From an uncultured Gammaproteobacteria bacterium (GTDB taxonomy: Bacteria; Patescibacteriota; Microgenomatia; Levybacterales; UBA12049): DNA of 64,000 nucleotides. Positions within the stretch are counted from its first letter, which is position 1; every line of letters starts with the position of its first letter. Where the stretch lies: positions 86,706 to 150,705 of the forward strand of contig CAZAZU010000001.1 of assembly GCA_964490105.1 (NCBI GenBank). The letters run 5' to 3'. The notes beneath the pieces were generated by a model. That model made no database searches and was not told the origin of the DNA. It saw only the letters and a list, made by a program, of their open reading frames with translations. Both the position numbers and the translations under genes were made by a program. This document shows, in pieces, positions 2,983-62,017 of the stretch.

Positions 2983-3483
2983 ATGATGGAAGAAGAAGCT
3001 AAAAAAACAGGTATTAGCAAAACCATGATTATGGTAGGAATAGCGGTAGTTATCATTATCGCAGCAGTTGCAATCGGAGGTTTTGTTTTAACCAAAAATA
3101 AAGAGCAGGCTGTAGTAGAAGCTCCGCAAGAAAGCGTAACTGGAGCAATGAGTGAGACCAGGGAAGCGGGAACTAAAGCTACATACAAAGACGGTACGTA
3201 TGAAGCAAAGGGTGAATATTCCTATCACTCAGGTACAGAATCAATTGACGTTACAGTAACGCTTGCAAATGGAGTAATTGAGGATGTTGAGGTTGTGGCG
3301 CAAGCAAAAGCACCAACTTCAAAGAAAATTCAGGCAGATTTCATCGCCAACTATAAAGAACAGGTTGTTGGAAAAAATATTGATGAGGTTAATCTTGGAA
3401 AAATTTCTGGATCAAGTTTGACTCCAGTCGGATTTAACGCGGCACTTGAAGATATTAAGGCACAAGCGCAAGCTAGTTCTTAA
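2983..3483 (+). CDS. FMN-binding domain protein (probable ApbE flavinylation substrate), membrane-anchored
   Basis: 166 aa. SD GGAGGTG 6 nt upstream. N-terminal TM helix. FMN_bind-like core (TYKDGTYEAKGEYSYHSGTESIDVTVTLANGVIEDVEVV). Candidate flavinylation motif ISGSSLT, which resembles the canonical SGAT[LI][ST] motif. Sits immediately upstream of apbE. Confidence 0.55.
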   Translation: MMEEEAKKTGISKTMIMVGIAVVIIIAAVAIGGFVLTKNKEQAVVEAPQESVTGAMSETREAGTKATYKDGTYEAKGEYSYHSGTESIDVTVTLANGVIEDVEVVAQAKAPTSKKIQADFIANYKEQVVGKNIDEVNLGKISGSSLTPVGFNAALEDIKAQAQASS

Positions 3484-3485
3484 GT

Positions 3486-4373
3486 ATGAATTCGTTCCAG
3501 CTGGCTTTTGAAGCAATCGGTACTCAATGGGTAATCGATTGTTTTGATGTACCAATTTCCAAAGAAGAAACCTTGTCCATTATAACCACAAGGATTGAAG
3601 AATTTGATAAGACTTATTCCCGTTTTCGAAAAGATTCAATTGTATGGAAAATATCTGAAAAAACAGGTGAATATGAATTTCCACCTGACGCAAAAGAGTT
3701 ATTTTCTCTTTACGAAAAACTCGAACTTATAACAAATAGCGCCTTCACACTTCTTATCGGAAACACTTTAGTAGAAGCTGGTTATGACTCTGATTATAAA
3801 TTAAAACCAGGAAGAATAAATAAACTACCAAAATCATCAGAAGTTTATTCATATAAGTATCCGTTGTTAACTGTAAAAAAACCATTTATTCTAGATTTTG
3901 GCGGACTTGGAAAAGGTTATTTGATTGATATCATTGCGAATCTTCTTTTAGAAAATAATATTAACACTTTTACGATCGATGGTGGGGGAGACATCTATTA
4001 TAAAAACGATGAAAAAGTTTTAAGTGTAGGACTTGAGCATCCGGGAAATTATAAACAAGTAATTGGGATCGCAAAGATAAAAAATCAAAGTATTGCAGCT
4101 TCTTCTGGAAATAGAAGGGCGTGGGATAGGTTTCACCACATAATAGATGCAAATTCTTTAAAGTCTCCGGATAAAATTCTTGCTACGTGGGTGGTTGCAA
4201 ATGACGCAGTTACTGCAGACGGATTAGCAACATGTTTATTTTTTGTTTCAGAGGAAAAACTATTAAAATATTTTGAATTTGAATACTTAATTCTATATCC
4301 GGATTACTCTTTTAAAAAGTCTAATGGATTTCCTGCTGAGCTATTTATTCAAAAAGAAAATTTAGTACAATGA
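3486..4373 (+). CDS. apbE: FAD:protein FMN transferase (ApbE family)
   Basis: 295 aa. ApbE-like motifs LDFGGLGKGYLID and DGGGD. Stop is TGA. Confidence 0.7.
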   Translation: MNSFQLAFEAIGTQWVIDCFDVPISKEETLSIITTRIEEFDKTYSRFRKDSIVWKISEKTGEYEFPPDAKELFSLYEKLELITNSAFTLLIGNTLVEAGYDSDYKLKPGRINKLPKSSEVYSYKYPLLTVKKPFILDFGGLGKGYLIDIIANLLLENNINTFTIDGGGDIYYKNDEKVLSVGLEHPGNYKQVIGIAKIKNQSIAASSGNRRAWDRFHHIIDANSLKSPDKILATWVVANDAVTADGLATCLFFVSEEKLLKYFEFEYLILYPDYSFKKSNGFPAELFIQKENLVQ

Positions 4374-4377
4374 TATC

Positions 4378-5886
4378 GTGAGGGGAATAGATAATTTACT
4401 TAACAGTTTTACAACTTATAGAGTAGTTCTCTGCGGACTGATTTTTCTCGCATGTATATCCATATTTTTTTCAGGCATAGGAATTGTTCCATTTTCAACA
4501 ATTAACTTGGTTGTTAGTTTGCTTCTTATTCTTGCTTCCTGTTTTATATCAAATTTTATATATGCGAAAATTTTTAAAGTTCAGGTAAATATTGAGTCGT
4601 TCGCAATTACTGGGTTAATTCTATTCTTAATCCTCACTCCATATGAACTGGGAAATTCTCCATTAAATTACATTTTGTTTTCTACAATTGCGATGGGTTC
4701 AAAATATGTTTTGGCAATTCATAAAAAGCATATTTTTAATCCTGCAGCATTTTCCCTTGTAGTAATGGGTTTGTTTGGTGCATATGAGGGTGAATGGTGG
4801 ATTGGAAATACATTCCTATTCCCATTTGTTTTATTGGTAGGACTTTTAATTGTTAGAAAAGTTAGAAAGTTTAGTCTTTTCATTTCTTATTTTATCTTTG
4901 CGGTTATTTCAATTTCTATTTTTGCTTATTTGAATGGATCAGATGTATTAAAAATATTAAGTCAGGCAATTCCATCATGGCCTCTTCTTTTTTTGGGAAC
5001 CATTATGCTGACAGAACCTTTAACTATGCCGCCGAAAAGACGTCTTCAAGTATTTTATGGCGCTTTGGTGGGTTTTCTAACGGGTGTGCAGTTTAATATC
5101 GGCCCTTTCTTTATGACATCTGAGACTGCACTTATTCTAGGAAATATTTTTTCCTATTTTGTAAGTTTTAGAAAAAGATTAATTTTAGAATTTAAAGAAA
5201 AAATTGAATTGTCTCCAAATATCTACGAATTTATTTTTAAAAAACCTTCATCGCTTTCATTTCTGCCAGGACAATATTTTGAATGGACACTTGGTAACAG
5301 AAGACCAGATTCTAGAGGAGTAAGGAGATATTTTACTATTTCATCAAGTCCTACTGAAAATGACATAAGGCTTGGTGTAAGACTTGAAAAAGACAAAGGA
5401 AGTAGTTTTAAAAAATCACTTTTAAATTTAGCTCCAGGACAAAAAATTTATGCAGGAAATTTATCAGGGGATTTTACGCTTCCAAAAAATAAAAATGAAA
5501 AAATAGTTTTCATAGCGGGCGGAATTGGTATAACACCTTTTAGAAGCATGATTAGTTTTATGTTGGATAAAAATGAAAACAGAGACATAGTTTTATTTTA
5601 TTCAAATGCAAAACCCGAGGATTTTGTTTATAGAGATATATTTTACTCTGCAAGGCAGAATGGTTTAAAAACTGTTTATATTTTAACTAAAGAAACGACA
5701 GAAAATTGGAATGGATATACAGGTAGATTAACAGCTGAAATTATTAAAAAAGAAGTTTCTGATTTTACCAATAGAACATATTATCTTTCTGGGCCCATTG
5801 CAATGGTGGACAATTATAAAAAACTCTTAAGAAGGTTGGGTATAAAACAAAATAAAATAATTACAGATTATTTCCCCGGATTCTAA
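4378..5886 (+). CDS. Polytopic membrane protein fused to FNR-like oxidoreductase (FAD_binding_6 + NAD_binding_1)
   Basis: 502 aa, GTG start. About 6 predicted TM helices in the first 260 aa. Then a ferredoxin-NADP reductase-type module: RRYFTISSSP (RxY[ST] FAD motif) and IAGGIGITPFRSM (NAD(P)-binding GGxGxxP). Confidence 0.6.
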   Translation: MRGIDNLLNSFTTYRVVLCGLIFLACISIFFSGIGIVPFSTINLVVSLLLILASCFISNFIYAKIFKVQVNIESFAITGLILFLILTPYELGNSPLNYILFSTIAMGSKYVLAIHKKHIFNPAAFSLVVMGLFGAYEGEWWIGNTFLFPFVLLVGLLIVRKVRKFSLFISYFIFAVISISIFAYLNGSDVLKILSQAIPSWPLLFLGTIMLTEPLTMPPKRRLQVFYGALVGFLTGVQFNIGPFFMTSETALILGNIFSYFVSFRKRLILEFKEKIELSPNIYEFIFKKPSSLSFLPGQYFEWTLGNRRPDSRGVRRYFTISSSPTENDIRLGVRLEKDKGSSFKKSLLNLAPGQKIYAGNLSGDFTLPKNKNEKIVFIAGGIGITPFRSMISFMLDKNENRDIVLFYSNAKPEDFVYRDIFYSARQNGLKTVYILTKETTENWNGYTGRLTAEIIKKEVSDFTNRTYYLSGPIAMVDNYKKLLRRLGIKQNKIITDYFPGF

Positions 5887-5993: not shown

Positions 5994-6494
5994 TTGAGAT
6001 TAATGGCTCTAATTGAAGCCTACGCTGGGTTTTTAGCAAAACAAGCTGAATTGGCTAAATATCAGAAAATGGCAAGAATTCTTACTCTTTCTCAGAGAGA
6101 GGCTGTTATCTCTCTTCTTCCAGTAATTCCAGAAATAAATGATAAGACCAGAGTGATTTTTAATGGTGCACAGATAGCTTTAATTGGTCAGGTTGTAGAT
6201 AGATTTGTAAATGGACAAGCAGAAGGACAGGGGGTTGATCTTATAGTTGCAAACAATTCTGTACCAGGCCCGCATCTAGATGGTTTATCCGAATTTGTTG
6301 CTGGAGAATTTTTTTTAATGAGTAGTGGAGGGATTAGAACAGTTCACGAGACGCCAATTTATAGGATTCTTTCAAGCGGTGGAGATAATTCTACTAGGAT
6401 AATCTTAAACACAGAAAGAGTAGACGATAGGCGAAGAATAAAAGCATCTAGAGATCCGGGAAATATGACATTTGTTAATCTAAGTTTAGGATAG
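5994..6494 (+). CDS. hypothetical protein (island A)
   Basis: 166-aa ORF with TTG start and a possible ATG at 6003. Elevated GC relative to flanks. No recognisable motif. Confidence 0.3.
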   Translation: MRLMALIEAYAGFLAKQAELAKYQKMARILTLSQREAVISLLPVIPEINDKTRVIFNGAQIALIGQVVDRFVNGQAEGQGVDLIVANNSVPGPHLDGLSEFVAGEFFLMSSGGIRTVHETPIYRILSSGGDNSTRIILNTERVDDRRRIKASRDPGNMTFVNLSLG

Positions 6495-6517
6495 TAAAAA
6501 TTAAAGGAGGTGAAAAT

Positions 6518-6688
6518 ATGAAAGATAATGCTGGGCTTTCAGCCATTTATTGCACAGGAATAATAGGAGCCGCGATTTATTATATTCAGGTAACTTCTGG
6601 ATTTCAGGAGACAATCTGGGGTCTAATAAAAGCCCTATTCTGGCCAGGAGTTTTCGTTTACGAAGTAATGAAAATGCTTAGCCTTTAA
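6518..6688 (+). CDS. small membrane protein (56 aa), not in supplied ORF track
   Basis: ATG at 6518 preceded by the strong SD AAAGGAGGTGAAAAT. Translation MKDNAGLSAIYCTGIIGAAIYYIQVTSGFQETIWGLIKALFWPGVFVYEVMKMLSL shows two hydrophobic segments. TAA stop at 6686-6688. Confidence 0.4.
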   Translation: MKDNAGLSAIYCTGIIGAAIYYIQVTSGFQETIWGLIKALFWPGVFVYEVMKMLSL

Positions 6689-6741
6689 CTCCTAGGATTA
6701 CCCAAATTAGCAGGTATCTCTTGTGGGCCTCTAGTCAATCA

Positions 6742-6770
6742 TTGACCGAGTCTTATAGTAATTGTATAAT
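6742..6770 (+). promoter_or_regulatory. sigma70-type consensus promoter TTGACC-N17-TATAAT directly upstream of the 6779 gene (leader <=2 nt)
   Basis: -35 at 6742-6747, -10 at 6765-6770, ATG at 6779. Confidence 0.55.
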
Positions 6771-6778
6771 CTACGCTT

Positions 6779-7594
6779 ATGGTTTCAGAAGTATTTGATG
6801 GTCGCGGTCAAGATGGTGGGAGTCCAGCGCCACGCATTTTATTTCCTTTAGCTCAAGTAGAAGAAGGATCAAGTATGGTTGTGGCAAGAAGCGTAGGCGA
6901 ATATGCTCCTAATCCAGATGTGCCCCAAGGATTTAGCCTGCATCCTGATTTCTCTCACCTAAAAGTATTATTAAATGAAGATGGAAATCCGCATGTGCTT
7001 GTGCAGCCAGACGGTGAAATGATTCATTTAGCAAATAGAGATTATGATGATACAGATCTTTCCTTAAATAAATTTCTCTCAGGTAGCTTAACTGCTAAGC
7101 TAAATTCAGGAACGGATCCAATTTCAGTTCTTGATGTTGGGGGAGGCTATAAATCGTCTACAGCAATTGAAATAGGAGCAAGTAACGAGAGATTCAGAGT
7201 TACAAATGTGGACATTTTATTAAAAAATGCAACTCCAGTTTCAGGAAAAGCTCCTCGAAATGTGACACCTGTTTTAGGAGATGCCAGGAATTTACACGTC
7301 CCTGATAATTCCCAGGATGTTGTTTTTTCATCGAGACTTTTAATTTATATGAATGAGGAAGATTTTATTGCAGCATTTAAAGAAATCGTAAGAGTTTTGA
7401 AACCGGGCGGAGAAGCGATTTTGTTTGATTTGCCCATGGAAGCAGGGCGAAGTACACGCTTGACGCAAAGACTATCACGGGAATTAAATGTCGATGTGCC
7501 TGATTGGGAAATTGAAAGTTTTATAGGGATTGGATATGTAGTTTTAGTTTCAAAGCCGGAAAAGTTGGAAAAATCGGTTGCCGCAGAAGTTTAA
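6779..7594 (+). CDS. class I SAM-dependent methyltransferase
   Basis: 271 aa. Motif I VLDVGGGY. Motif II-like VVFSSRLLIYM. Motif III LKPGGEAILFD. Confidence 0.5.
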   Translation: MVSEVFDGRGQDGGSPAPRILFPLAQVEEGSSMVVARSVGEYAPNPDVPQGFSLHPDFSHLKVLLNEDGNPHVLVQPDGEMIHLANRDYDDTDLSLNKFLSGSLTAKLNSGTDPISVLDVGGGYKSSTAIEIGASNERFRVTNVDILLKNATPVSGKAPRNVTPVLGDARNLHVPDNSQDVVFSSRLLIYMNEEDFIAAFKEIVRVLKPGGEAILFDLPMEAGRSTRLTQRLSRELNVDVPDWEIESFIGIGYVVLVSKPEKLEKSVAAEV

Positions 7595-7595
7595 T

Positions 7596-8219
7596 CTAGC
7601 CTCTATAGCCTCTTCTTTGACCAAATACATCATTACTTGCGATAGGCGCAGAAAAATCCTTAATCCGTAGAGTTCTTGTGACGCTGCCAAATCTTGGTTG
7701 AACTGGACCAGTAACATGATCTAAAAAATTCCCAGGAGTAATAGGTCTGTTAGGATCAAAAGGAGGAGGAGAAGTAGGATCTTGATAAGTTTGGGTAACT
7801 GGTTCTGGTTCAGGACGAGCTAACTGCTGTGTAAATAATGAAGCATAGTCGCTAAGGGATCTAAAAGCCATGGTAGGATTTAATCCGCGAAGAGTCGCGA
7901 GGAATTCGTCCATCCTACTTCGCTCAACTGGCGATAGAAATGGATAGTTATCAATTCTTGCGAGCGTAACTAATTTTACGTCGAGAATTCTTTTAGTCAT
8001 TTGATCCTGCATATGAGCTATTTGTTTTTCTGAAAGCCCAGTTAAGTCAATTCCACTGATTACCGCTTCTGCCATGGATGCATCAATAGTACCGTGTCTT
8101 CTTCGTGTAGGATCCTCAGGATCTGGCTCTGCGAGTTTTAATGCTATAACATCTTCTACAGCCTTCCAATCAATAGGATCTTTATCTTTTTTCCCTCTTC
8201 TAGGTTCCTGATCTACCAT
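7596..8219 (-). CDS. hypothetical protein (island A), Pro-rich C-terminus
   Basis: 207-aa ORF. Its own TTGACA-N17-TATAAA promoter sits at 8228-8256 on the minus strand, with an 8-nt leader. Confidence 0.35.
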   Translation of the reverse strand: MVDQEPRRGKKDKDPIDWKAVEDVIALKLAEPDPEDPTRRRHGTIDASMAEAVISGIDLTGLSEKQIAHMQDQMTKRILDVKLVTLARIDNYPFLSPVERSRMDEFLATLRGLNPTMAFRSLSDYASLFTQQLARPEPEPVTQTYQDPTSPPPFDPNRPITPGNFLDHVTGPVQPRFGSVTRTLRIKDFSAPIASNDVFGQRRGYRG

Positions 8220-8227
8220 AAGGGATG

Positions 8228-8256
8228 TTTATACTACTAAATATTTGTTCTGTCAA
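8228..8256 (-). promoter_or_regulatory. sigma70-type promoter TTGACA-N17-TATAAA for the 7596-8219 gene
   Basis: On the minus strand: ttgaca gaacaaatatttagtag tataaa catccctt ATG. Confidence 0.5.
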
Positions 8257-8268
8257 CTAAATTTAGCC

Positions 8269-8297
8269 TTGACATAATCTTATAGTATTTATATAAT
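8269..8297 (+). promoter_or_regulatory. sigma70 consensus promoter TTGACA-N17-TATAAT, 6 nt upstream of the ATG at 8304
   Basis: -35 at 8269-8274, -10 at 8292-8297. Preceded by TTTAGCC at 8262-8268. Confidence 0.55.
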
Positions 8298-8303
8298 CCG
8301 CGC

Positions 8304-8687
8304 ATGGAAAAAAGCGATAGAAAAACACCGCCAGAAGAATTAAGAAGACAGGCTTCAATTAGACTTGCGCAGGTGAAAGCAGCAGGATTAGATGGTCAGG
8401 TAGGAGAAGTCGCGCGTTTTATGGCTTACGCTGCAGGATTTGAGATGGAAGCATTCGCCACTTATCCAAGACAGGATTTTAAAAATAGAAGAAAAAGCGG
8501 GATGGCTGCATTTAGACTTTTCTCAGAAATTTCCGACCATCAGCATGTGGTGACTTTTGGAACATTAATGCTTGAAATTCTTGATGGAAATTTATCCCGT
8601 GATGCTAAAAGAGAGATTAAAACAGGCATTAAGAAATCTAGAGCTCAGCTTCCTCAAAGCCCGATACCTCCAGTACAGAATATTTAA
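8304..8687 (+). CDS. hypothetical protein (island A)
   Basis: 127-aa ORF, leaderless-type promoter, no clear motif. Confidence 0.35.
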   Translation: MEKSDRKTPPEELRRQASIRLAQVKAAGLDGQVGEVARFMAYAAGFEMEAFATYPRQDFKNRRKSGMAAFRLFSEISDHQHVVTFGTLMLEILDGNLSRDAKREIKTGIKKSRAQLPQSPIPPVQNI

Positions 8688-8715
8688 GTTTTAGCCTTGA
8701 TTCTGAAGAAAGAAT

Positions 8716-9312
8716 CTATTTTGGTAGAAACACATATCCGTTTTGGATTCCCTGTGGGCTTTTTATAGCGATTCCTTCAGTGACTAAACTATCCCAAATT
8801 CTCGTTGCAGGAGCAGAAGGAGATAAGCCGGAATGAAGTGGAAGGCGATATGACATTTGAGAAAGAGCATTCATCACAAAAAGTCTTCTTCTCCCAAGGC
8901 CTTGTTTTTCAAAACCACTTTTAGTGTCCGTATATCCTACGAAAGGCTTACCTTTATAAAGTGGATGATTATTCGAAGCCACGTATCCACTCCCAACAGT
9001 TTCTCCATTTTTATCAATATCTACTAGAAATATGTTTTGTGGATTTAAAGGTGCGCCGTCTAACATTTGATCTATGGCGTATCTAGCGACAAAAGTAGTG
9101 CTCCCATCATCGTGAGAAATCCTGCTTACTTCCTGAAATTTTTTATAATCAAACACGCTTTGATCATCATATTCTGCATAAGGTTTTACCTCAGCAATAA
9201 AAGCTTCAGGGAGTTCGGTTATAGGTTCAATTCTTCCAGCAGGGAAATATCTATGGAATACTTCTGCATCTGATTCTTGTGGCGCGTCTCCTGAAATAGG
9301 TACATCACTCAT
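8716..9312 (-). CDS. hypothetical protein, possible GNAT-like acetyltransferase fold
   Basis: 198 aa. FEKQGLGRRRLFVMNAL resembles the GNAT motif A (Q/R-x-x-G-x-G/A). Weak evidence. Confidence 0.3.
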   Translation of the reverse strand: MSDVPISGDAPQESDAEVFHRYFPAGRIEPITELPEAFIAEVKPYAEYDDQSVFDYKKFQEVSRISHDDGSTTFVARYAIDQMLDGAPLNPQNIFLVDIDKNGETVGSGYVASNNHPLYKGKPFVGYTDTKSGFEKQGLGRRRLFVMNALSQMSYRLPLHSGLSPSAPATRIWDSLVTEGIAIKSPQGIQNGYVFLPK

Positions 9313-9339
9313 AAAATCATTTTACCATTCTTTAAATTC

Positions 9340-9367
9340 TTGACACCGAAGCAAAAGAAAGTATAAT
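9340..9367 (+). promoter_or_regulatory. sigma70 consensus promoter TTGACA-N16-TATAAT, 8 nt upstream of the ATG at 9376
   Basis: -35 at 9340-9345, -10 at 9362-9367. Confidence 0.55.
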
Positions 9368-9375
9368 CACTCCTT

Positions 9376-9771
9376 ATGGCAAATGAGAGAGATCCATTGT
9401 CAGGATCAGATTTTGAAATTGCAGATTATCATGCTAGAGCTATGGAATACGCAGATAAAGCAGACGGTAGATTACCTCTTGAGCCTGGAGATTCTATAGA
9501 TGCACGCAAATTAATGAATGCGGCGTTTTGTTTTGAGCAGGCAGTATTTTGGCTTATTCCTGACTTAAGAACAATTCCGAGAAGTCAGGCAGCAGTAAAT
9601 GCAGTGAGTCTGGCATTTAGAGGCAGAGATTATGTAGGAGCGATAAGTTTTGGACAAGAGGCCATGGATGACATGGGAATACACATGTCTGAGGTTTCAA
9701 GAACTAGAATTGAACGAATGATTGAAGAATCAATTGATAAAATTATTGCGCCTTCTATCCGCAAGCCATAA
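9376..9771 (+). CDS. hypothetical protein (island A)
   Basis: 131-aa ORF, no motif recognised. Confidence 0.35.
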   Translation: MANERDPLSGSDFEIADYHARAMEYADKADGRLPLEPGDSIDARKLMNAAFCFEQAVFWLIPDLRTIPRSQAAVNAVSLAFRGRDYVGAISFGQEAMDDMGIHMSEVSRTRIERMIEESIDKIIAPSIRKP

Positions 9772-10511: not shown

Positions 10512-10539
10512 AAGAACCGCTTAATAGCGGTTCTTTTTT
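10512..10539. terminator. rho-independent terminator hairpin (AAGAACCGC-TTAATA-GCGGTTCTT) plus T-tract
   Basis: Perfect 9-bp stem, 6-nt loop, then TTTTTT. Lies between the convergent genes 10285-10491 and 10538-12208. Confidence 0.65.
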
Positions 10540-12208
10540 ATATATTGGGGTCTTCGGAGAATTCATCTAGAATTACTTCGTGCTGTTCATGATTCACATC
10601 TCGTCTTAAAGCATCACCTGCAGGTGTCTGAGGAATAGGAGTTAGTGTTGGTAGCGGAGGAGGAAGTGTTTGATTTATATCTCCAACTTTTATAATTTTT
10701 GCTACTGAAGGGACGTCATTATTATTAAGAATAAAAAGCATGTAGTGTCCTGGAGGTGTAGCTCCAGCATTATTCGTAGCTGTTACTTCAATTTCTCCTG
10801 ATCTTTTAACAAAACTTAGGGCATTAATTCGTTGAGACTGATTAAATGAGTGGGTTACAGATCCTAATCTGATCCATCTTACTGTTTTTATGTCAGAAGC
10901 GTCCGGTGTTACAACCTTAAATTTTTGGCCATAATTGACCTGGTTAGGAGCAGAAGCGATAGTAGGGCGAGGTCCTTTAAATAAATATGCCGGAGAATAG
11001 ATCTCCATGCTTGTTCCGCCAACTCTTTCTCCTCCTCCTGAGAAAACTCTCCCGTCAGGAAGAAGAAGAGCTGTTGAATGATAACCTCTATAGACTGTTT
11101 GGGGGGCTACTTTTCTCCAGTTTCCCGTGGTGGAGTTCCAGATCTCAGGAGTTAATACAGCATTCTCGGGTTCATCTTTTACGCCTGAGGTTCCTCCCGT
11201 TACGAGAACTTCGCCTGTCGGGAGAAGAGTTGTATTAGCATGTCTTCTTTTTATAGACATAGAGCCTGTATACATCCATTTTGGTGTCGTAGCTCCTAAG
11301 CTAATTATTTCTGCTGAATTAGTTCCTCCGCCTACTATTAGAATTTTATTATTTGCAAACATTACCGAACTTCCTGCACCCCTTGATACACCATGCCGAG
11401 TTTTAATAATAGGTCCCCATTTACCTGTACCATTTGTATCTAGGATTCTGGTATTTGCTGTATTTCCTGCCATAAATACTTTTCCGCTAGATAATTGATA
11501 CATAAATGGATAAAGTGGCTGTAGTAATTTCGCAGTGCTCAAGGTTCGCCATTTGTTTGTTCTAATATTGTAAACTTGAGGAATTCGGTTATAAACATCT
11601 TTCTCAATTGTTCCTGATGTGGTTAGTAAATCTCCGTTAGTTAAGGTAGTAACAGTTGGATACCACCTTTTGTCGTTCATATTTGCGACTCTTGTCCAGG
11701 AATTAGTAGCAGGATCATAAAAAGAGGCATGCTGAAGCCCAATAGGAGTAACTACATGACCGCCCGGGACAAATAATTTTCCATCTGCAGTTAGAGAATG
11801 ACCTGCACAGAAAATATTATATCCGGCTTTTGGCGCAGCTTCTGTAGCGCCAGTTTCGGGATCCCAAAAATATGCATTATCACCCTCACTTGAAGGCCAA
11901 GTCATTACTTTTCCATTTGGAAGTAGAGAGGTGTGGGTAGCTTTTACTGGAAGCTCTGTTACCTCTGACCACTGACCTACAATAGCAGGGTCTCCTGATT
12001 GAGCAAAAGTATTAGTATTTGTTCCTTTAGTCGTATCTATAATTTTTGGACCCAAGACAGCAGCTATTACTAGAGCAGGTAGTAGTAATATAAATGTACC
12101 CCCAGCTAGTGTCTTTAATTTATGTTGGGACAATTTTTTTAAGAGGTTTGATTTATTAGTTTTTGGAATAATAGAATTAGACTGCGGATTATCTAGAGAA
12201 TCGCTCAT
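10538..12208 (-). CDS. secreted Kelch-repeat beta-propeller protein, galactose-oxidase/glyoxal-oxidase-like with C-terminal E-set (DUF1929-like) domain
   Basis: 556 aa. N-terminal TM/signal. Repeated Kelch-like blades (GG..., W..V..M). C-terminal Ig-like beta domain. Family inferred from repeat architecture. Confidence 0.5.
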   Translation of the reverse strand: MSDSLDNPQSNSIIPKTNKSNLLKKLSQHKLKTLAGGTFILLLPALVIAAVLGPKIIDTTKGTNTNTFAQSGDPAIVGQWSEVTELPVKATHTSLLPNGKVMTWPSSEGDNAYFWDPETGATEAAPKAGYNIFCAGHSLTADGKLFVPGGHVVTPIGLQHASFYDPATNSWTRVANMNDKRWYPTVTTLTNGDLLTTSGTIEKDVYNRIPQVYNIRTNKWRTLSTAKLLQPLYPFMYQLSSGKVFMAGNTANTRILDTNGTGKWGPIIKTRHGVSRGAGSSVMFANNKILIVGGGTNSAEIISLGATTPKWMYTGSMSIKRRHANTTLLPTGEVLVTGGTSGVKDEPENAVLTPEIWNSTTGNWRKVAPQTVYRGYHSTALLLPDGRVFSGGGERVGGTSMEIYSPAYLFKGPRPTIASAPNQVNYGQKFKVVTPDASDIKTVRWIRLGSVTHSFNQSQRINALSFVKRSGEIEVTATNNAGATPPGHYMLFILNNNDVPSVAKIIKVGDINQTLPPPLPTLTPIPQTPAGDALRRDVNHEQHEVILDEFSEDPNI

Positions 12209-18435: not shown

Positions 18436-20109
18436 GTGGAGAGTATTTTTCTTGAACTTACAGTTGTAATTTTTTTAGCTGCAGTCTTGTCTATAATTTT
18501 TCGCTTCTTAAAACAGCCTTCGATTCTCGCATTCATTGTAACAGGAGTGATTGTGGGTCCAGTTGGTTTATTTAATTTTCATAGTCACGAGTTAATGCAG
18601 TCTCTTGCTTCAATTGGAATAACGCTTCTTTTATTTATGATCGGTCTCGAGCTGAATATAAAAGAGCTGAAATCAGTAGGGAAAGTCGCCTTACTAGCAG
18701 GGGTGGGGCAGATGTTTTTTACATCCGTTGCAGGGTTTGGAATTAGTATGCTTCTGGGATTCTCTGCTTTAACATCCATTTATATAGGAATTGCCCTAGC
18801 TTTTTCTTCGACTATTTTAATTATAAAGCTTCTATCTGATAAGAGAGACATTAAAAGTCTTTATGGAAAAATAACCATAGGTATTTTGCTGGTGCAGGAT
18901 TTAATTGCAATTCTTATTTTAATCTTGCTTTCAACCTTTAGCGGTGTTGCGGGTACATCAATTAATTTTTTTGAAATAATCATTGCTCTTTTAAAGGTAA
19001 TAGTTTTATTTGGTTGGGTTATATTTTTGAGTAAAAATATTTTACCAAGAATACTTAACGTGATCGCTCGCTCATCTGAATCTCTTTTCCTGTTTAGTCT
19101 TGCTTGGGTTTTTGGGATTGCAGCATTAGTTAGTTCTCCTATAATCGGTTTTTCAATTGAAATTGGGGGTCTTTTGGCGGGAATTGCATTGGCATCCTCA
19201 ATTGAAAGTTTTCAAATTATCACAAAAATAAAACCTCTTAGGGATTTTTTCATAACTATTTTCTTCGTGACGCTTGGGATGGATTTAGCATTTAATAACA
19301 TTTCTCAAATTCTCGTGTCTGTATCTGTATTCTCTATTTTCGTTTTACTTATTAGCCCAATTATTATAATGATAATTTTAGGATTACTTAAATATAAAAA
19401 AAGAACTTCATTCATGGCGGGAGTTACGCTTGCTCAAATTTCTGAATTTTCTCTCATCATGCTTTATTTAGGAAATAAAATAGGTCATATTTCTGAGGAA
19501 GTTCTCTCCATAATAACTTTTGTGGGAGTTGTGACTTTTGTAATTTCAACTTACTTCATTACCAACAGTAATTATATTTATAAATTTCTATTACCAATTT
19601 TGGGAATTTTTGAAAGAAAAAATATTAATGATCAAAAAGAGCCTGAGGAATTAAAAAATCACACTATTTTAATAGGAGCGAATAGAATGGGGGAGGGAAT
19701 TCTCAATGCGCTTATAAAAAAGAATGCAAAATTTGTAGTTGTAGATTTTGATCCGGATATTATCGAAAAGTTAAATAAAAAAAAGATAAAAACATTCTTC
19801 GGAGATATTTCCGATCCTGAAATTGCACAGGCAGTTAATGTTGAAAAGGCAGATTTAATTATATCTACGGCCTCAGATCCAGAGGACAATCTCCTCCTCC
19901 TAAAAAGTATAAAGAAATTTAAAGATGTTAAGGTGATCGTTGCAGCATTTGATAAGAGGGACGCGAGGGATTTTTATAAAGCAGGAGCTGATTATGTAAT
20001 AATGCCTCATATAGCAGGAGGTAATCATCTAGCAAATATTTTAGTTGCTGATGATCATTTGAAGTTAATTGAGGAGCATAAAGAAAAAGAAAAAGTTTAT
20101 ATTTCGTAA
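18436..20109 (+). CDS. monovalent cation:proton antiporter (CPA2/Kef-type) with C-terminal RCK/TrkA-N domain
   Basis: 557 aa, GTG start. 10-12 TM helices. C-terminal Rossmann-like RCK ([13 protein letters not shown]). Confidence 0.7.
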
Positions 20110-46790: not shown

Positions 46791-48830
46791 TTATACTAGA
46801 AATGAGGCAATTAATAATGCAACAATGTTCAATACTTTGATCATTGGGTTAATTGCCGGGCCTGCTGTGTCTTTATAAGGATCTCCAACTGTATCTCCTG
46901 TTACCGCTGCAGCGTGCGCAAAGCTACCCTTTCCTCCGAATTTACCTTCTTCAATATATTTCTTAGTGTTATCCCAGGCAGCTCCACCTGTGGTCATTGA
47001 AATTCCTACGAATAGTCCTGTTACGATTGAACCGATTAGTAGTCCTCCAAGTGCTTTTGGACCTAGTAAAAATCCTACTAAAATAGGTGCTACAACTGGA
47101 ATTAATGCTGGAACAATCATCTGTTTTATGGCTGCAGTTGTAACGATGTCTACTGCTTTTGCATACTCTGGTTTTGCTTTTCCGGTCATAATGCCTTTAA
47201 TTTCTTTAAACTGGCGTCTAACTTCATCAACTACTGCAACTGATGCTTTTCCAACTGCTTCCATGGCTAGAGCTCCGAAGAAATATGGAAGTGCTCCTCC
47301 GATGAAAAGTCCGATGATAACTCTTGGATCAGATAGCGTAAATGAAGCAGCGGTGATGCTGCCGCCAAGATGAACTAATTCTTCTGTGTAGCTTGCAAAT
47401 AATACTAAAGCTGCAAGTCCCGCTGAGCCAATAGCATAAGCTTTAGTCACAGCTTTGGTGGTATTTCCTACGGCATCAAGCGGATCCGTAACGTTTCTTA
47501 CTTTTTCTGGAAGTCCTGACATCTCAACAATTCCGCCGGCATTATCAGTGATTGGTCCGAAAGCGTCAATCGCAACAACTATTCCAGTAAGTGAAAGCAT
47601 CGACATAGCTGCAATTGCGATTCCATATAATCCTGCTAATTCATATGCGACTAATGTTCCTGCTGAGATAAGTAAGATTGGAAGTAATGTGGATTTCATA
47701 GAGATCGCGAGTCCAGCAATAACATTTGTTCCTGATCCTGTATTTGATGCCTCAGCAATCGTTCTAACTGGAGAGAATTTTTTGGATGTATAGAATTCTG
47801 TAATGGCAACGAGTCCAATTGTAATTACGAGTCCTACAATTGAGGAGATAAATAATGACATGCTTGAAACATCTCCTAGTCCATTTGGGAAAAGAAGATT
47901 TGTTAAGAAATAAAATCCTGCTAATGCTAAAAGAGCTGAAACGATAAGTCCTTGATAGAGAGCTGCCATGATAGCTTTTCCTCTAACTCTTACAAACCAG
48001 GTTCCTATAATACTTGTTACGATTGATATGGCTCCGATTAATAGCGGATAAAGAAGTACTGTTTGATTTCCTCTGAATGCTAGATCTCCAAGAATCATTG
48101 CGGCAACAGCTGTAATTACATATGTTTCAAAAAGATCCGCTGCCATTCCCGCGTCATCTCCGACGTTATCCCCTACCAAATCAGCGATAACTCCTGGATT
48201 TCTAGGATCGTCTTCTGGAATTCCTTTTTCAATTTTTCCTACCATGTCAGTTCCAACGTCAGCAGATTTTGTAAAAATTCCTCCGCCTAGTCTAGCGAAC
48301 ACTGAAATAAGAGAGCCTCCGAATCCTAGCGCGATTAATGGCTGGAGATTTGGTGTTGAATCCTGAGAGCTAAGGAATAGATAAAAGCCTGTAACAGAGA
48401 CCAAAGCAAGCCCGCAAACCATAAGTCCCGTTACCGCTCCGCCTTTAAACGCCATTCCAAACGCTTCTTTTAATCCTTTTTTTGCAGCCTCAGCAGTGCG
48501 AATATTACTTCTCACGGCTATTCCCATTCCAAAAATTCCAGCTACTGAGGAAAGGATAGCGCCGATTGCAAAACCAATTGCGGTATATGAACCAAATACG
48601 AAGTAAAGGCCTGCAAGCATGACGATTCCAATTCCTGCAATTACTAAATATTGTTTTTTCATGTAGGCATTTGCGCCTTCAGAAATTGCGTCAGCGATTG
48701 CATTCATTTTTTCGTCACCGCGGGGATTTCTAAGAATTACTAAGCTTAAATATGCTCCGTAAATTATAGAAAGAAGACCTGCCCCCAAGCAGATCATTAA
48801 TGCATTATTAAGAATAAATGATAAGTCCAT
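46791..48830 (-). CDS. hppA: membrane-bound H+/Na+-translocating pyrophosphatase
   Basis: 679 aa, about 16 TM helices. GDNVGD and [18 protein letters not shown] signatures. Confidence 0.9.
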
Positions 48831-53592: not shown

Positions 53593-53643
53593 ACAGCTTT
53601 GATTCCCTTGATTTATATCACACTTTTAAATACTATTATAGTA

Positions 53644-55356
53644 ATGCCCGCGATATCTACTTCACAGACCGCGTTATCTGACGCGCTTTATCAACAGCGC
53701 TTGCTTAGTCCTGCGCAGTATAACGACATAAAATTAAAAGTCGTAACACAGGGGCTTTCCGAAGAAGACGTTTTAAATGCTCTAAATGTAGTTAGTGAAG
53801 ACAAAATGTCTGAAACTAAAGCTAAGATTTTAGGAGTTCCGTATATATCCCTTGAGTCCACTTCATTTTCTCCTCAAGCCTTAGGTTTAGTTCCTGAAGC
53901 TGTTGTTCAGAGATTTAACTTAATCCCCTTTTCTTATGACGAGAGAAGCAGAACTCTATCAATCGCGATGGGAAATCCTGTAGATCTGGATGCTCTTTCT
54001 TTTGTTAGGCAAAAAACCGGACTAAATATTAAAGCATTTGCGGCTTCACCATCCGGCGTTAAGCAAGCCATAGACATGCAGTATAAGCAGCAGCTTGTAG
54101 GTCAAGTTGGAGAAGCTTTAAAGGAAACAGAGGATACAAATAAAACAAAGACTGTAGATGCAACTCAAATCGCGCAGATAATTAAAGAGGCTCCAATCGC
54201 TAAGATCGTTTCCACCATTTTAGAATATGCTGTAAAAAGCAGAGCGTCAGATGTGCACATAGAACCTCAGGAAGAAAGAGTCCGCGTCCGCTATAGAATT
54301 GACGGAATTTTATATGATCGCTTGAGTCTTCCAAAATCTGTTCAGGAGGCTGTAATTTCCCGCATAAAAATTCTGTCTGAAATGAAAATTGACGAGCATC
54401 GTGCGCCTCAAGACGGAAGATTTAATTTTAAGATTGAAGATAAGGAAGTCGATCTTCGTATATCAGTGCTTCCTGCAGCGCACGGTGAAAAAATCGTAAT
54501 GAGACTACTCCGAAAGAGCGGAGGAATTCCAACGCTTGAGGAGCTTGGTCTTATGGGAACAGCTTTAAGAAATCTTGAAACAAATATGCTTAGACCGCAC
54601 GGAATTATTATCGTCTGCGGACCCACTGGGTCTGGAAAAACTACAACACTTTATTCCGTCTTAAACAAGCTTAATAGTCCAAAGGTAAATATTATGACTC
54701 TTGAGGATCCGGTCGAGTATGAAATGCCTGGCATAAATCAGGTGCAGGTTAATTCATCCGTAGGACTTACTTTTGCAACAGGACTTCGTGCTTTTCTTAG
54801 ACAGGATCCAAACGTAATTCTCGTAGGAGAAATTAGAGATAAAGAAACTACAGACCTCGCTATACAGGCAGCTTTAACAGGACATTTGGTTTTTTCAACA
54901 CTTCACACTTCAAATGCATCGGGAGCACTTCCTAGGCTGATTGATTTAGGAGCTGAAACCTTTCTCTTGTCTTCAAGTATAAATGCTATAGTCGGGCAAA
55001 GAATCGTTAGGCGACTTTGCCAAACTTGCAAATCTGCATATCCTCCCCCTCCCCAGCTCTTAGATATGATGAAAAGAGAACTAGGTGCACTTTTCCCACA
55101 AGGAGAAGCTAAATTTTATAAACCAGTTGGCTGCGCAGAATGTGACAATTCTGGATATCTGGGAAGAGTTGGAGTTTTTGAGGTTCTGCCTGTTTCTCCA
55201 AAGATAGCAGAAATGATATTAAAAAGAACTGATAGCCCAACAATTGAGAAAGAAGCAATTTCTGAGGGAATGATCACCATGAAACAGGATGGATATATAA
55301 AAGTGTTAAGAGGAGTGACTACTGTCGAAGAGGTTTTGCGTGTTGCACAGGAATAG
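53644..55356 (+). CDS. pilB: type IV pilus assembly ATPase PilB (GspE family)
   Basis: Walker A GPTGSGKTTT. Asp box, His box. Tetracysteine CQTC...CAEC. Start placed at ATG 53644, behind the promoter TTGATT-N17-TACTAT (53608-53636); the track ORF starts at 53599. Confidence 0.75.
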   Translation: MPAISTSQTALSDALYQQRLLSPAQYNDIKLKVVTQGLSEEDVLNALNVVSEDKMSETKAKILGVPYISLESTSFSPQALGLVPEAVVQRFNLIPFSYDERSRTLSIAMGNPVDLDALSFVRQKTGLNIKAFAASPSGVKQAIDMQYKQQLVGQVGEALKETEDTNKTKTVDATQIAQIIKEAPIAKIVSTILEYAVKSRASDVHIEPQEERVRVRYRIDGILYDRLSLPKSVQEAVISRIKILSEMKIDEHRAPQDGRFNFKIEDKEVDLRISVLPAAHGEKIVMRLLRKSGGIPTLEELGLMGTALRNLETNMLRPHGIIIVCGPTGSGKTTTLYSVLNKLNSPKVNIMTLEDPVEYEMPGINQVQVNSSVGLTFATGLRAFLRQDPNVILVGEIRDKETTDLAIQAALTGHLVFSTLHTSNASGALPRLIDLGAETFLLSSSINAIVGQRIVRRLCQTCKSAYPPPPQLLDMMKRELGALFPQGEAKFYKPVGCAECDNSGYLGRVGVFEVLPVSPKIAEMILKRTDSPTIEKEAISEGMITMKQDGYIKVLRGVTTVEEVLRVAQE

Positions 55357-55376
55357 TATTAATTCATAATAGATTT

Positions 55377-56444
55377 ATGGACATTAGAGAACTATTAAAT
55401 ATTACAGTTAAGAATAAGGCTTCGGACTTACATCTTCTGGTGGGAATCGCGCCCACAATTAGACTTGACGGAGTTTTAAACCCTTTAACCAATTATCCCC
55501 CTCTGACCAGCGAGGTTCTGGAAGCTATGATTTTTTCTGTAATTAGCCCCCATCAGAAAGAATTACTTTTGGCAAATAAAGAACTCGATTTTTCTTTTGG
55601 ATTTTCTAAAGATGCAAACGGAAGCGAGGGAAGATTTAGGGTAAATATTTACTATCAGAGAGGTTACATTTCAGGAGCCTTTAGATATTTAGAGCCAACT
55701 ATAAGAACCATAGAAGAGCTTAAGCTGCCTAAAATTTGTAATGAATTTGCAAAATTAAAACAAGGATTTGTGTTGGTAACAGGGCCTACCGGACACGGAA
55801 AGTCAACCACACTGGCGGCGATGATAAATGAGGTAAATATAAACAGACCGCTTCACATTTTAACTATCGAGGATCCAATAGAATACGTTTATCCGGTTGG
55901 AAAAAGTATAGTTAGTCAGCGTGAAATGGGTCAAGATTCTCACTCATGGAATTATGCGCTTAGATCCGCACTTCGTGAGGATCCAGACGTAGTATTAGTC
56001 GGAGAAATGAGAGATCCAGAGACTATTGCAGCAGCCATAACCATTGCTGAAACAGGGCATTTAGTTTTCTCGACACTTCATACAAATTCAGCATCCCAGA
56101 CAATTGACAGAATGATCGATTCTTTTCCTCCAAGCCAGCAGCCGCAGGTTAGAATTCAGCTAGCCTCAACCCTTAAGGGAATTATTTCCCAAAGACTTCT
56201 TCCTCAGATTAACGGTGGAAGAGTTCCAGCCGCAGAAGTTCTAATCGGAAATAATGCTGTAGCGACAAATATCAGAGACGGAAAAACTCATCTTATTGAT
56301 TCTATAATTGAAACTTCACAGGATGTCGGAATGATAAGTCTTGAGTCTTCTCTTTCATCTCTAGTTATGACTGGAGCAATTAGTCTTGAAACCGCGAAGA
56401 GTTATGCTACCCGCCCCGACGATTTACTTAGGATGGTTGTTTAA
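55377..56444 (+). CDS. pilT: twitching-motility retraction ATPase PilT
   Basis: 355 aa. Walker A GPTGHGKSTT. PilT-type C-terminus. Confidence 0.8.
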   Translation: MDIRELLNITVKNKASDLHLLVGIAPTIRLDGVLNPLTNYPPLTSEVLEAMIFSVISPHQKELLLANKELDFSFGFSKDANGSEGRFRVNIYYQRGYISGAFRYLEPTIRTIEELKLPKICNEFAKLKQGFVLVTGPTGHGKSTTLAAMINEVNINRPLHILTIEDPIEYVYPVGKSIVSQREMGQDSHSWNYALRSALREDPDVVLVGEMRDPETIAAAITIAETGHLVFSTLHTNSASQTIDRMIDSFPPSQQPQVRIQLASTLKGIISQRLLPQINGGRVPAAEVLIGNNAVATNIRDGKTHLIDSIIETSQDVGMISLESSLSSLVMTGAISLETAKSYATRPDDLLRMVV

Positions 56445-56446
56445 AT

Positions 56447-57652
56447 ATGAGACTAAGGTATAAAGCAGTTTCTCAGGATGGAAAGAAAGTTAGAGGATTT
56501 GTAGAAGCAAAGGAAATAAAGGATGCTGCGTATTATCTTCGTCAGAGAAATCTTATCCCCATCCAGATCAGTAAAGAGGCAGAATATGAATTTATAAAAA
56601 AATTACCTTTTGTAAGTAAGACAAAATCAAAAGATCTTATTCTTTTTACCCGTCAGCTCTCATCTATGCTCGCTTCAGGACTTACTCTAATTAAATCTTT
56701 AGAAATACTAAAAGAACAGACAACGAATAAATATCTCCAGGAAACAATCGGGGGAATTTTACTAGACTTGGAAGAGGGAAAATCTTTCTCAGACTCAATT
56801 GCGAAGTATCCCGATGTTTTCCCGTCTATTTATGTGTCTTTAGTTAGAGCTGGTGAATCATCAGGACTACTGGATAAGATTTTTTTAAGACTTGCTACTA
56901 ATTTAGAAAAACAGCATAAATTAAGAAATACTGTCAGGGGCGCCCTTATGTATCCGATAATTGTTATAACGCTTATGGTGATCGTTATGCTTATCTTGAT
57001 GGTTTTTGTTATTCCTGAACTTAGTAAACTTTATGATAGTTTAGGTGTGACTCTTCCTTTTGTGACAAGAGTAGTCGTGGGAATTTCAAGTGGGGTGGGT
57101 AAAATCTGGTTTCTTTTAGTTGGCCTGACAGTTGTATTTGTTTATGCTTTTTTGAGATGGAAAAAAACTCCAACGGGTAAGGAAATGTACGATCGAAATA
57201 TTCTAAGATTTCCGCTTTTTGGAAAAATCATAAGACAAACGATTCTTACTGAATTTTCAAGAACCTTTGGGCTATTGGTCGGAACGGGAACTCTAATCGT
57301 GGACGCTCTTAATCAGAGCGCAGCGGTGACAGGAAATTTTGTTTATGATAAGTCAATTAGGGAAATTGCCAAAAGAGTCGAGAAAGGAGTTCCTGTGGGA
57401 GAGGCAATGGCTACTTATTCATATTTCCCTCCCCTTTTAATCCAGCTAGTAAAAGTAGGAGAAGAAACCGGAAAAATGGATGAAAATTTATTAAAAGCTT
57501 CGGAATATTTTGAAGAAGAAGTTAGCCAGGCGGTAAAAACCTTAACAACAGCTATGGAGCCATTTATTATGATAGTTCTAGGAATAGGTGTAGGTTTTCT
57601 CGTTTTTTCAGTAATTACACCAATCTACAGTATTCTTAATGCGGTTCAATAA
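56447..57652 (+). CDS. pilC: type IV pilus platform protein PilC (GspF family)
   Basis: 401 aa. Duplicated GspF domains, 3 TM helices. Confidence 0.8.
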   Translation: MRLRYKAVSQDGKKVRGFVEAKEIKDAAYYLRQRNLIPIQISKEAEYEFIKKLPFVSKTKSKDLILFTRQLSSMLASGLTLIKSLEILKEQTTNKYLQETIGGILLDLEEGKSFSDSIAKYPDVFPSIYVSLVRAGESSGLLDKIFLRLATNLEKQHKLRNTVRGALMYPIIVITLMVIVMLILMVFVIPELSKLYDSLGVTLPFVTRVVVGISSGVGKIWFLLVGLTVVFVYAFLRWKKTPTGKEMYDRNILRFPLFGKIIRQTILTEFSRTFGLLVGTGTLIVDALNQSAAVTGNFVYDKSIREIAKRVEKGVPVGEAMATYSYFPPLLIQLVKVGEETGKMDENLLKASEYFEEEVSQAVKTLTTAMEPFIMIVLGIGVGFLVFSVITPIYSILNAVQ

Positions 57653-57673
57653 AATCAGGCACAGAATGACTAC

Positions 57674-57703
57674 TTGACAAGGGAAAAAATATCTGGCAAT
57701 AAT
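57674..57703 (+). promoter_or_regulatory. sigma70-type promoter TTGACA-N18-AATAAT for the pilin gene
   Basis: The track ORF start (TTG 57674) is the -35 hexamer itself. The ATG at 57713 follows the -10 by 9 nt. Confidence 0.5.
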
Positions 57704-57712
57704 GACTTATAC

Positions 57713-58204: not shown

Positions 58205-58231
58205 CTTGACGAACTGATAGGAATTAATTAT

Positions 58232-58257
58232 GCTCACTTAGGTGAGCATTTTTTTTG
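58232..58257 (+). terminator. rho-independent terminator/attenuator after the pilin gene (GCTCAC-TTAG-GTGAGC plus T8)
   Basis: The hairpin stem contains the GTG start codon (58242) of pilD. Confidence 0.55.
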
Positions 58258-61069: not shown

Positions 61070-61105
61070 GTTGACATCATTAACTATCATTGTTAGTCTT
61101 AAAGT

Positions 61106-62014: not shown

Positions 62015-62017
62015 TCT

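Follow-up and report, generated by a model that had tools for sequence, protein, structure and literature searches.

An NQR/RNF-like flavinylation operon in a Levybacteria-type bacterium of the candidate phyla radiation, with an ApbE that lacks an export signal

The NQR/RNF-like flavinylation system has been defined by a PF03116-PF00175 fusion gene located within five genes of ApbE or FMN_bind; it comprises 127 gene clusters, mainly from Actinobacteria and the candidate phyla radiation (CPR), and is proposed to conduct electrons one way, from NAD(P)H to an extracytosolic flavin mononucleotide (FMN) (Méheust et al. 2021, PMC8238504). The two-subunit complex of Ktedonobacter has been modelled by AlphaFold-multimer with the FMN_bind subunit docked on the outer face, the flavinylation threonine of NqrB and RnfD is lost in the membrane subunit of the system, and the tethered FMN of the partner has been suggested to sample the noncovalent flavin site of that subunit (Huang et al. 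2024, PMC11334425). In RnfD and NqrB themselves, riboflavin lies towards the cytoplasm and FMN towards the periplasm, ~8 Å apart, and RnfG hands electrons to RnfD, from which they pass to RnfC (PMC12174285). Here, we describe a three-gene operon at positions 2983 to 5886 of a 64,000-nucleotide stretch of contig CAZAZU010000001.1 (the window). The operon is a member of the published NQR/RNF-like system: it encodes a PF03116-type and PF00175 fusion, the ApbE and FMN_bind genes are located immediately upstream on the same strand, and the threonine is lost. Its fusion, its neighbouring FMN_bind protein with a membrane anchor, and its ApbE are those found in the described members, from which it does not differ in kind, but it belongs to a subtype (type A, see below) in which the FMN_bind motif is SGSS and not SGAT and the Asp of the motif is absent. 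The published signal-peptide filter might miss this locus. We did not find the signal-less ApbE, the two operon subtypes, or the larger size of the family (609 versus 127 clusters) described in the literature searched.

The three open reading frames (ORFs) were confirmed. All are codirectional, with intergenic gaps of 2 and 4 bases, as a first-pass annotation of this DNA had stated, and the motifs quoted in that annotation (ISGSSLT, RRYFTISSSP, and GGIGITP) are all present and fall on conserved alignment columns. The features of the operon are as follows.

2983..3483, plus strand: membrane-anchored FMN_bind protein (NqrC/RnfG-like subunit), 166 amino acids (ORF; Pfam, family-level matches, and PDB profile match)
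3034..3090, plus strand: N-terminal hydrophobic anchor of the FMN_bind protein, residues 18 to 36 (Kyte-Doolittle peak, 2.95)
3403..3423, plus strand: candidate flavinylation motif I-S-G-S-S-L-T, residues 141 to 147, with the predicted FMN-bearing Ser145 (codon 3415-3417)
3486..4373, plus strand: ApbE (FAD:protein FMN transferase), 295 amino acids (Pfam ApbE E value, 1.5e-35)
4378..5886, plus strand: fusion of an RnfD/NqrB-like membrane domain and an FNR-type FAD/NAD(P)H module, 502 amino acids, GTG start (ORF, homologues, and model)
4378..5181, plus strand: RnfD/NqrB-type membrane domain, residues 1 to 268, predicted N-in/C-in (Pfam PF03116, RnfD profile match, Foldseek, and loop counts of lysine plus arginine [K+R])
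4774..4818, plus strand: short extracytosolic loop, residues 133 to 147, FGAYEGEWWIGNTFL (RsxD alignment, invariant columns, and loop K+R)
4795-4800, plus strand: invariant Trp140-Trp141 of the short loop of the fusion (homologue alignments)
5182..5886, plus strand: cytoplasmic FNR-type module (Pfam NAD_binding_1 and FAD_binding_6; PDB sequence and Foldseek matches)
5323-5352, plus strand: FAD motif RRYFTISSSP, residues 316 to 325 (invariant columns, 52 homologues)
5518-5538, plus strand: NAD(P)H motif GGIGITP, residues 381 to 387 (invariant columns, 52 homologues)

The true start of the FMN_bind gene is probably the second ATG, at 2986, since the database copy of the protein (P0121) has 165 amino acids and a GGAGG sequence lies 5 nucleotides upstream. 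Promoter and terminator scans at the operon gave results no better than those obtained with shuffled sequence.

The fusion protein has full-length homologues at 47% to 100% identity, and its full-length AlphaFold model has a pLDDT (predicted local distance difference test score) of 89.4. The first-pass annotation had left the family of the membrane domain open and counted about 6 transmembrane helices; neither statement can be maintained. The domain is RnfD/NqrB-type on the basis of a PF03116 match, a profile match to a known RnfD, and the fold of its model. The Pfam match (NQR2_RnfD_RnfE; residues 142 to 261) has an E value of 1.9e-5 and 24.6 bits at a cutoff of 27.7, and many of the fusion homologues have precomputed PF03116 matches. 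A phmmer search of PDB sequences with the membrane domain alone gave no match, and a profile was required; the profile of the N-terminal 268 residues matched Azotobacter vinelandii RnfD (8ahx_D; E value, 2.3e-4). Because the Foldseek list for the full-length model was dominated by matches to the FNR domain, the membrane domain was also modelled separately (AlphaFold; pLDDT, 85). The top 15 PDB matches of this model were all RnfD (A. woodii, A. vinelandii, and C. tetanomorphum) or Vibrio cholerae NqrB, with E values of 5e-7 to 5e-4 and TM-scores of 0.58 to 0.78, and the urea and ammonium channels, which are known distant relatives of the RnfD/NqrB fold, ranked after them. The models show about ten helical elements within the membrane, of which eight are long and two are short. 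With the RnfD/NqrB identity overlooked, the first-pass annotation lacked the family of the domain as well as its likely cofactor logic, a path through the membrane that is based on flavins.

In an alignment with Escherichia coli RsxD, the family profile formed two colinear blocks (profile positions 24 to 144 with RsxD residues 20 to 142 and positions 160 to 261 with residues 234 to 334). RsxD residues 143 to 233, a periplasmic insert of ~90 residues containing I-S-Q-A-T187, had no counterpart in the profile alignment, and their position is filled by the 15-residue loop FGAYEGEWWIGNTFL with its invariant Trp140-Trp141. Thr187 is the residue that we take to be the covalent-FMN site of RnfD-type proteins. 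Inspection of the membrane domain by eye revealed no [ST]G[AS][ST] motif, and the covalent-FMN threonine of NqrB and RnfD has been lost together with its loop. The mean K+R counts of the loops in 52 homologues alternate, from 0.8 to 4.0 in the even-numbered loops and from 0.04 to 0.6 in the odd-numbered ones. Both termini and the FNR module are therefore placed inside and the Trp-Trp loop outside, and the mean K+R of the latter (0.13) fits an outside location.

The C-terminal part of the fusion had been described as a ferredoxin-NADP-reductase-type FAD and NAD(P) module, and Pfam, fold, and motif conservation all support this description. NAD_binding_1 (PF00175) was matched with an E value of 8e-17 and FAD_binding_6 with one of 0.0022; the best PDB sequence matches were the FAD/NADH domains of NqrF (E value, 8e-19). 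Foldseek searches with the full-length model returned NqrF, FNR, and flavohaemoglobin folds (target-normalised TM-score, up to 0.84), and R317-Y-F-T320 and G381-G-I-G-I-T-P387 fall on columns that are invariant among the 52 homologues.

The first gene had been annotated as a membrane-anchored FMN_bind protein. The anchor (residues 18 to 36) and the family-level matches are in keeping with this; the Pfam score of the protein itself is below threshold (PF04205; E value, 0.0059; 17.7 bits at a cutoff of 22). Pfam FMN_bind was matched by 17 of 35 family members (best E value, 4.8e-6), and the family profile matched the FMN-binding domain of PDB entry 8p2a (E value, 0.023) with 'vsgsSLt' aligned to 'VSGATYT', which places Ser145 in register with the flavinylated Thr of the SGAT motif. 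Ser145 is invariant in 35 homologues, in which the conservation of Ser144, Leu146, and Thr147 is 90% or more. The motif reads G-K-I-S-G-S-S, compared with the canonical D-x-x-[ST]-G-A-[ST], so that Gly139 replaces the Asp and Ser144 replaces the Ala.

The FMN_bind protein has a single hydrophobic segment, at its N terminus, which judging from the sequence is probably an uncleaved anchor. In the family, the mean net charges of the N- and C-terminal flanks of this segment are +1.4 and -0.7, respectively; the N-terminal flank is the more positive in 23 members, and the reverse holds for 5. A lipobox (LAGC or VAGC) takes the place of the anchor in the distant homologues P0188, P0196, P0198, and P0201. 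On the basis of this charge bias and of the lipoprotein signals in the four distant homologues, the anchor is predicted to be N-in/C-out and the FMN_bind domain to lie outside the cytoplasm.

The identification of the second gene product as ApbE stands, with a match to PF02424 (E value as listed above) that covers profile positions 2 to 256 of 266 and begins at residue 12. Its alignment with 6nxi, a V. cholerae ApbE construct that lacks the signal, starts at residue 9 and shows conservation of GGLGKGY, HHIID (4134-4148), and TADGLAT. A review assigns a general-base role to His257 of ApbE, and Mg binding by Asp and Thr belongs to the active-site features of the family; the corresponding motifs (H-I-I-D and T-A-D-G-L-A-T) are intact here.

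The ApbE was assumed in the first-pass annotation to act outside the cell, and the sequence gives no sign of its export: no signal peptide, lipobox, transmembrane helix, or hydrophobic segment was found in the window ApbE. Its ATG is preceded, 3 codons away, by an in-frame stop codon, and the start of the catalytic domain is near residue 8. An export signal was also absent from the 120 best database homologues of the ApbE (263 to 310 amino acids) and from all 52 complete ApbE ORFs located beside fusion genes, in which even the longest possible frames had no hydrophobic N-terminal stretch. In contrast, an N-terminal anchor was present in the FMN_bind partner in 49 of 52 cases, and in the actinobacterial operon L010 an ApbE without an export signal lies beside a lipoprotein FMN_bind partner. 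Characterised ApbEs with exported substrates are exported themselves, and those known from the cytosol have cytosolic substrates only, as in the case of the one that serves the fumarate reductase of Klebsiella pneumoniae. We found no discussion of this mismatch between a signal-less ApbE and an exported substrate in the literature searched.

A tentative explanation, which we regard as possible but somewhat unlikely, is that the signal-less ApbE flavinylates the unfolded FMN_bind preprotein in the cytoplasm and that Sec export follows (cofactor-first export). Since a seven-residue motif is sufficient as a substrate of ApbE, flavinylation of an unfolded preprotein before its passage through Sec is chemically conceivable. 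Alternatively, ApbE might reach the outside by some unconventional route. Twin-arginine translocation (Tat) of a preflavinylated, folded domain was rejected as a general answer, with a twin-arginine-like motif being present in only 1 of 132 distinct partner proteins.

The profile of the membrane domain recovered 609 clusters at 50% identity with an E-value threshold of 1e-30, most of them of ~500 amino acids, and 1484 clusters at a threshold of 1e-10. We examined 83 related loci, of which 49 distant ones with at least 1.7 kb of upstream sequence were used for synteny counts. A single-protein scan of genome contigs yielded five close relatives and one unrelated FNR match, and an alignment-based scan of metagenomes extended this set. 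All five close relatives have the full three-gene module, although the ApbE is split in one of them. In this relative (L004:5110-5988; 69% identical), ApbE is present as fragments of 96 and 123 amino acids with the middle part missing, whereas the FMN_bind protein and the fusion are intact; the split reflects either a pseudogene or an assembly error. The 49 distant loci comprise 35 with the full module, 1 with ApbE only, 3 with FMN_bind only, and 10 with neither. The recurrence of the arrangement in the five close relatives and in 35 of 49 distant loci shows that it is not due to chance.

The operons fall into two types. In type A, to which the window operon belongs, ApbE has ~292 amino acids and the motif is SGSS or SGAS. 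In type B, ApbE has ~248 amino acids, starts with MKxTRxxMGMP, and has no export signal (Pfam ApbE E value, ~1e-40), and its FMN_bind partner has a canonical SGAT motif and an MKK-hydrophobic signal sequence followed by a Ser/Thr/Pro-rich linker; L016, L019, L028, L047, L072, and ~20 other loci are examples (e.g., L047:2739-5491). Some loci depart from both arrangements. At L012:3499-5521, one of the 10 loci with neither gene, a fusion of 51% identity is free of ApbE and FMN_bind over a distance of 4 kb and lies head to head with a divergently transcribed gene for a 150-amino-acid cupredoxin of the plastocyanin/azurin type, a possible alternative extracytosolic electron acceptor. At the locus L007:4111-6518, on a CPR contig of 1.3 Mb, as well as at L008 and L009, ApbE adjoins the fusion, and the upstream genes are Zincin_1 and Zn_ribbon_2 and not FMN_bind; in such loci, either the gene for the substrate must lie at another site or ApbE must have another target.

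Taking these observations together, we consider it likely that the operon encodes an NQR/RNF-like electron-outlet module of two subunits along with its own flavin transferase. As homology suggests, cytosolic NAD(P)H would reduce the FAD of the C-terminal FNR module, and the electrons would then cross the RnfD/NqrB-like domain, probably via a noncovalent flavin at the cytoplasm-proximal riboflavin site. They would arrive at the covalent FMN on Ser145 of the anchored FMN_bind protein at the outer face; this FMN, which ApbE would install, probably sits in the pocket vacated by the covalent-FMN loop of RnfD, near Trp140-Trp141 (after Huang et al. 2024). The physiological value is likely to be the reoxidation of NAD(P)H or the reduction of an outside substrate such as Fe(III), which is speculation on our part. 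The route from NAD(P)H through a membrane FNR to a flavinylated exported protein, as proposed in the first-pass annotation, thus agrees with the published model and with the topology evidence, whereas the extracellular acceptor at its end was pure conjecture.

By analogy, the operon corresponds to the RnfC-RnfD-RnfG arm, presumably working one way and with a fused FNR-type reductase replacing RnfC; in Rnf, this arm leads from riboflavin via the covalent FMN to the FMN of RnfG. The RnfD fold is shared with the Rnf complexes of A. vinelandii (8ahx) and A. woodii (9eri), with TM-scores of up to 0.78, and the F-N-P-A and T-(D/E)-P-x-T motifs of RnfD are retained in the membrane domain. The FMN_bind partner likewise consists of an N-terminal helix and an FMN_bind domain with a candidate covalent-FMN motif, and in both systems the cytoplasmic partner binds NAD(H). 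However, RnfA, RnfE, and RnfB were not found at the window locus, a cis-fused FNR-type FAD module stands in place of RnfC with its FMN and two [4Fe-4S] clusters, the periplasmic insert that carries covalent FMN in RnfD is deleted, and electron flow is presumably one way and outward. Similarly, the FNR module resembles the FAD/NADH domains of NqrF and the membrane domain matches NqrB of the Na+-NQR of V. cholerae (7xk3 and 8a1t), but the fusion has no counterpart of the [2Fe-2S] ferredoxin domain of NqrF, genes for NqrA, NqrD, and NqrE were not found in the window, and the membrane domain, with 268 amino acids compared with ~415 in NqrB, is without the N-terminal extension of the quinone site. 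In Na+-NQR, moreover, NqrF feeds NqrD/E and not NqrB. No companion genes for RnfA/B/C/E/G or NqrA/C/D/E/F were present among the ORFs scanned in the window or in the related loci.

The flavin-based extracellular electron transfer system of Listeria (Ndh2, EetA/B, PplA, and FmnB) also combines an ApbE-type enzyme with the extracytosolic FMN_bind protein that this enzyme flavinylates, and it moves electrons of cytosolic NADH outward in a monoderm cell, as is proposed for the window module. In Listeria, electrons pass through a pool of quinones, and the lipoprotein FmnB is exported and receives its FAD from an energy-coupling factor (ECF) transporter, whereas the window module has no quinone step, an unrelated membrane protein, and an ApbE without an export signal.

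Several other explanations of the operon were weighed. In having FAD and NAD(P)H domains after a membrane part, the fusion resembles NOX, and in Foldseek searches with the full-length model Streptococcus pneumoniae NOX and DUOX were listed owing to the FNR part that they share with it, but we regard the idea that the fusion is a haem-containing ferric reductase of the NOX/FRE type as having practically no chance of being correct: there is no Pfam ferric-reductase (PF01794) match, the membrane domain has only one invariant His (His118), the domain alone never matches NOX, and the alignments with NOX have root mean square deviations of 17 to 19 Å. The first-pass annotation, which saw no classic FRE/NOX domain, was right in this respect. 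It is also very improbable that the operon is a decayed remnant or a partial paralogue of a canonical six-subunit Rnf or Nqr complex whose genes lie in another part of the genome. The homology to RnfD/NqrB, to the FMN_bind domains of the RnfG/NqrC type, and to NqrF would fit such an origin, and our inspection covered 64 kb of a contig of ~785 kb; however, the fused architecture is maintained across the 609 clusters and, with an unchanged gene order, in dozens of loci, the reading frames are uninterrupted and carry invariant motifs, the covalent-FMN loop has been cleanly removed and not degraded, no gene for RnfA/B/C/E or NqrA/D/E was found in the window, and the NQR/RNF-like system is treated as separate in the literature (PMC8238504, PMC11334425). 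Both the NOX/FRE haem domain and the decayed remnant were rejected. A minimal NAD(P)H-driven ion pump, in which the RnfD/NqrB-like domain also translocates Na+ or H+, would be consistent with the fold that RnfD/NqrB, one proposed ion path in Rnf and Nqr, shares with urea and ammonium channels and with the membrane pyrophosphatase and Na+/H+ exchanger encoded in the window, so that ion gradients matter to the organism. We nevertheless find this improbable, as the coupling in Rnf and Nqr is tied to the [2Fe-2S] switch of RnfA/E (NqrD/E), partners that were not found in the window, and to the movement of RnfG/NqrC between two partners.

The location of the flavin chemistry can be read in another way, namely, that all of it is cytoplasmic and that the FMN_bind domain lies inside and shuttles electrons from the FNR module to the RnfD-like domain, which then delivers them to an acceptor in the membrane or outside. 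This would suit the absence of an export signal from the ApbE in the window, the 120 homologues, and the 52 neighbours, as well as the existence of cytosolic ApbEs for cytosolic substrates, as in K. pneumoniae, and when the FMN_bind protein of the window is considered alone, the two flanks of its anchor differ little in charge. Nevertheless, we hold this to be improbable in view of the lipoprotein signals of actinobacterial FMN_bind homologues (including L010, where such a signal occurs in the same operon as a signal-less ApbE), the N-in/C-out charge bias of the family in 23 members versus 5, the signal sequences and Ser/Thr/Pro-rich linkers of the type B partners, and the published AlphaFold-multimer docking of the subunit on the outer face (PMC11334425).

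Our preferred reading, an outward electron-outlet module with its flavin transferase, also has points that weigh against it. The signal-less ApbE of the window, the 120 homologues, and the 52 neighbours is at odds with a substrate domain predicted to be outside. The flavinylation motif is noncanonical, with no Asp at position -6 and with Ser for Ala at -1, and the FMN_bind and PF03116 matches in the window are both under the Pfam gathering score. In an hhalign comparison, the FMN_bind family profile did not significantly match E. coli RsxG (probability, 1.25%), and specific RnfG orthology is not claimed for the FMN_bind protein. The 10 of 49 distant loci that have the fusion but neither ApbE nor FMN_bind nearby, and the one with ApbE only, indicate that the fusion can work with other partners. 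No acceptor gene recurs beside the module according to clustering of the neighbouring ORFs across the loci, in which only pairs of histidine kinases and response regulators recurred (8 loci). Finally, the published support for any member of the system is bioinformatic and AlphaFold based only, with no experiment in the literature searched.

The DNA comes from a CPR bacterium of the Levybacteria type: the closest homologues are named Candidatus Levybacteria or Levyibacteriota. The metagenome-assembled genome records of L001, L002, L004, and L005, whose operons are 69% to 83% identical, are labelled 'uncultured Gammaproteobacteria bacterium'; these labels are probably wrong, since L003 and the protein names indicate Levybacteria. 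Part of the upstream flanking synteny of the window is kept in L001 and L002. Our gene scan covered nearly all ORFs of at least 130 amino acids in the window and detected no respiratory-chain gene or further Rnf or Nqr subunit, in line with the statement in the first-pass annotation that no respiratory-chain genes are visible. The scanned ORFs include housekeeping genes, Lgt, and the following.

46791-48830, minus strand: membrane H+/Na+-pyrophosphatase
18436-20109, plus strand: Na+/H+ exchanger with a TrkA_N domain
53599-63569, plus strand: complete-looking type IV pilus cluster (PilB, PilT, PilC, prepilin peptidase, pilins, and PilM)

These three are typical CPR features and bear on the energisation of the membrane without a respiratory chain. 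Six ORFs of 166, 271, 207, 127, 198, and 131 amino acids lie directly downstream of the operon (5994-9771), and no Pfam or PHROG family was found for them except for an S-adenosylmethionine (SAM) methyltransferase (6779-7594). Among the five close relatives, this block is shared with L002 only, the others having a pair of genes for proteins of 278 and 373 amino acids, and it looks like a strain-variable island. In addition, an ORF at 10538-12208 (minus strand), 4.6 kb from the flavin module, encodes a 556-amino-acid protein in which a hydrophobic segment at the N terminus is accompanied by a Kelch propeller and by Glyoxal_oxid_N and galactose oxidase-like (GO-like) E-set domains. It is a candidate copper radical oxidase of the galactose/glyoxal oxidase type, an O2-dependent extracellular redox enzyme that is unexpected in a CPR genome.

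The usual picture of CPR bacteria (Patescibacteria) is that of fermenters that have no electron-transport chain, and a widespread flavin-only module of three genes that could carry NAD(P)H electrons across the membrane would give them a redox outlet or a means to reduce iron or host-surface substrates. The idea of such an outlet is already in the literature, so the locus adds an example and not a concept. Beyond the example, what could matter most is the consistent mismatch between a signal-less ApbE and an exported substrate. If cofactor-first export were true, the cell could do without an exported ApbE and without an exporter of FAD, which would suit minimal CPR genomes, and the order of events would be the opposite of that in every ApbE system characterised. 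Whether by this route or by unconventional export of ApbE, the published scheme of 'extracytosolic flavinylation' would be incomplete for the whole NQR/RNF-like family. If real, the mismatch would be relevant to the assembly of covalent flavoproteins outside the cytoplasm and to the question of why flavinylation appeared 'strikingly underrepresented' in CPR in earlier screens based on signal peptides.

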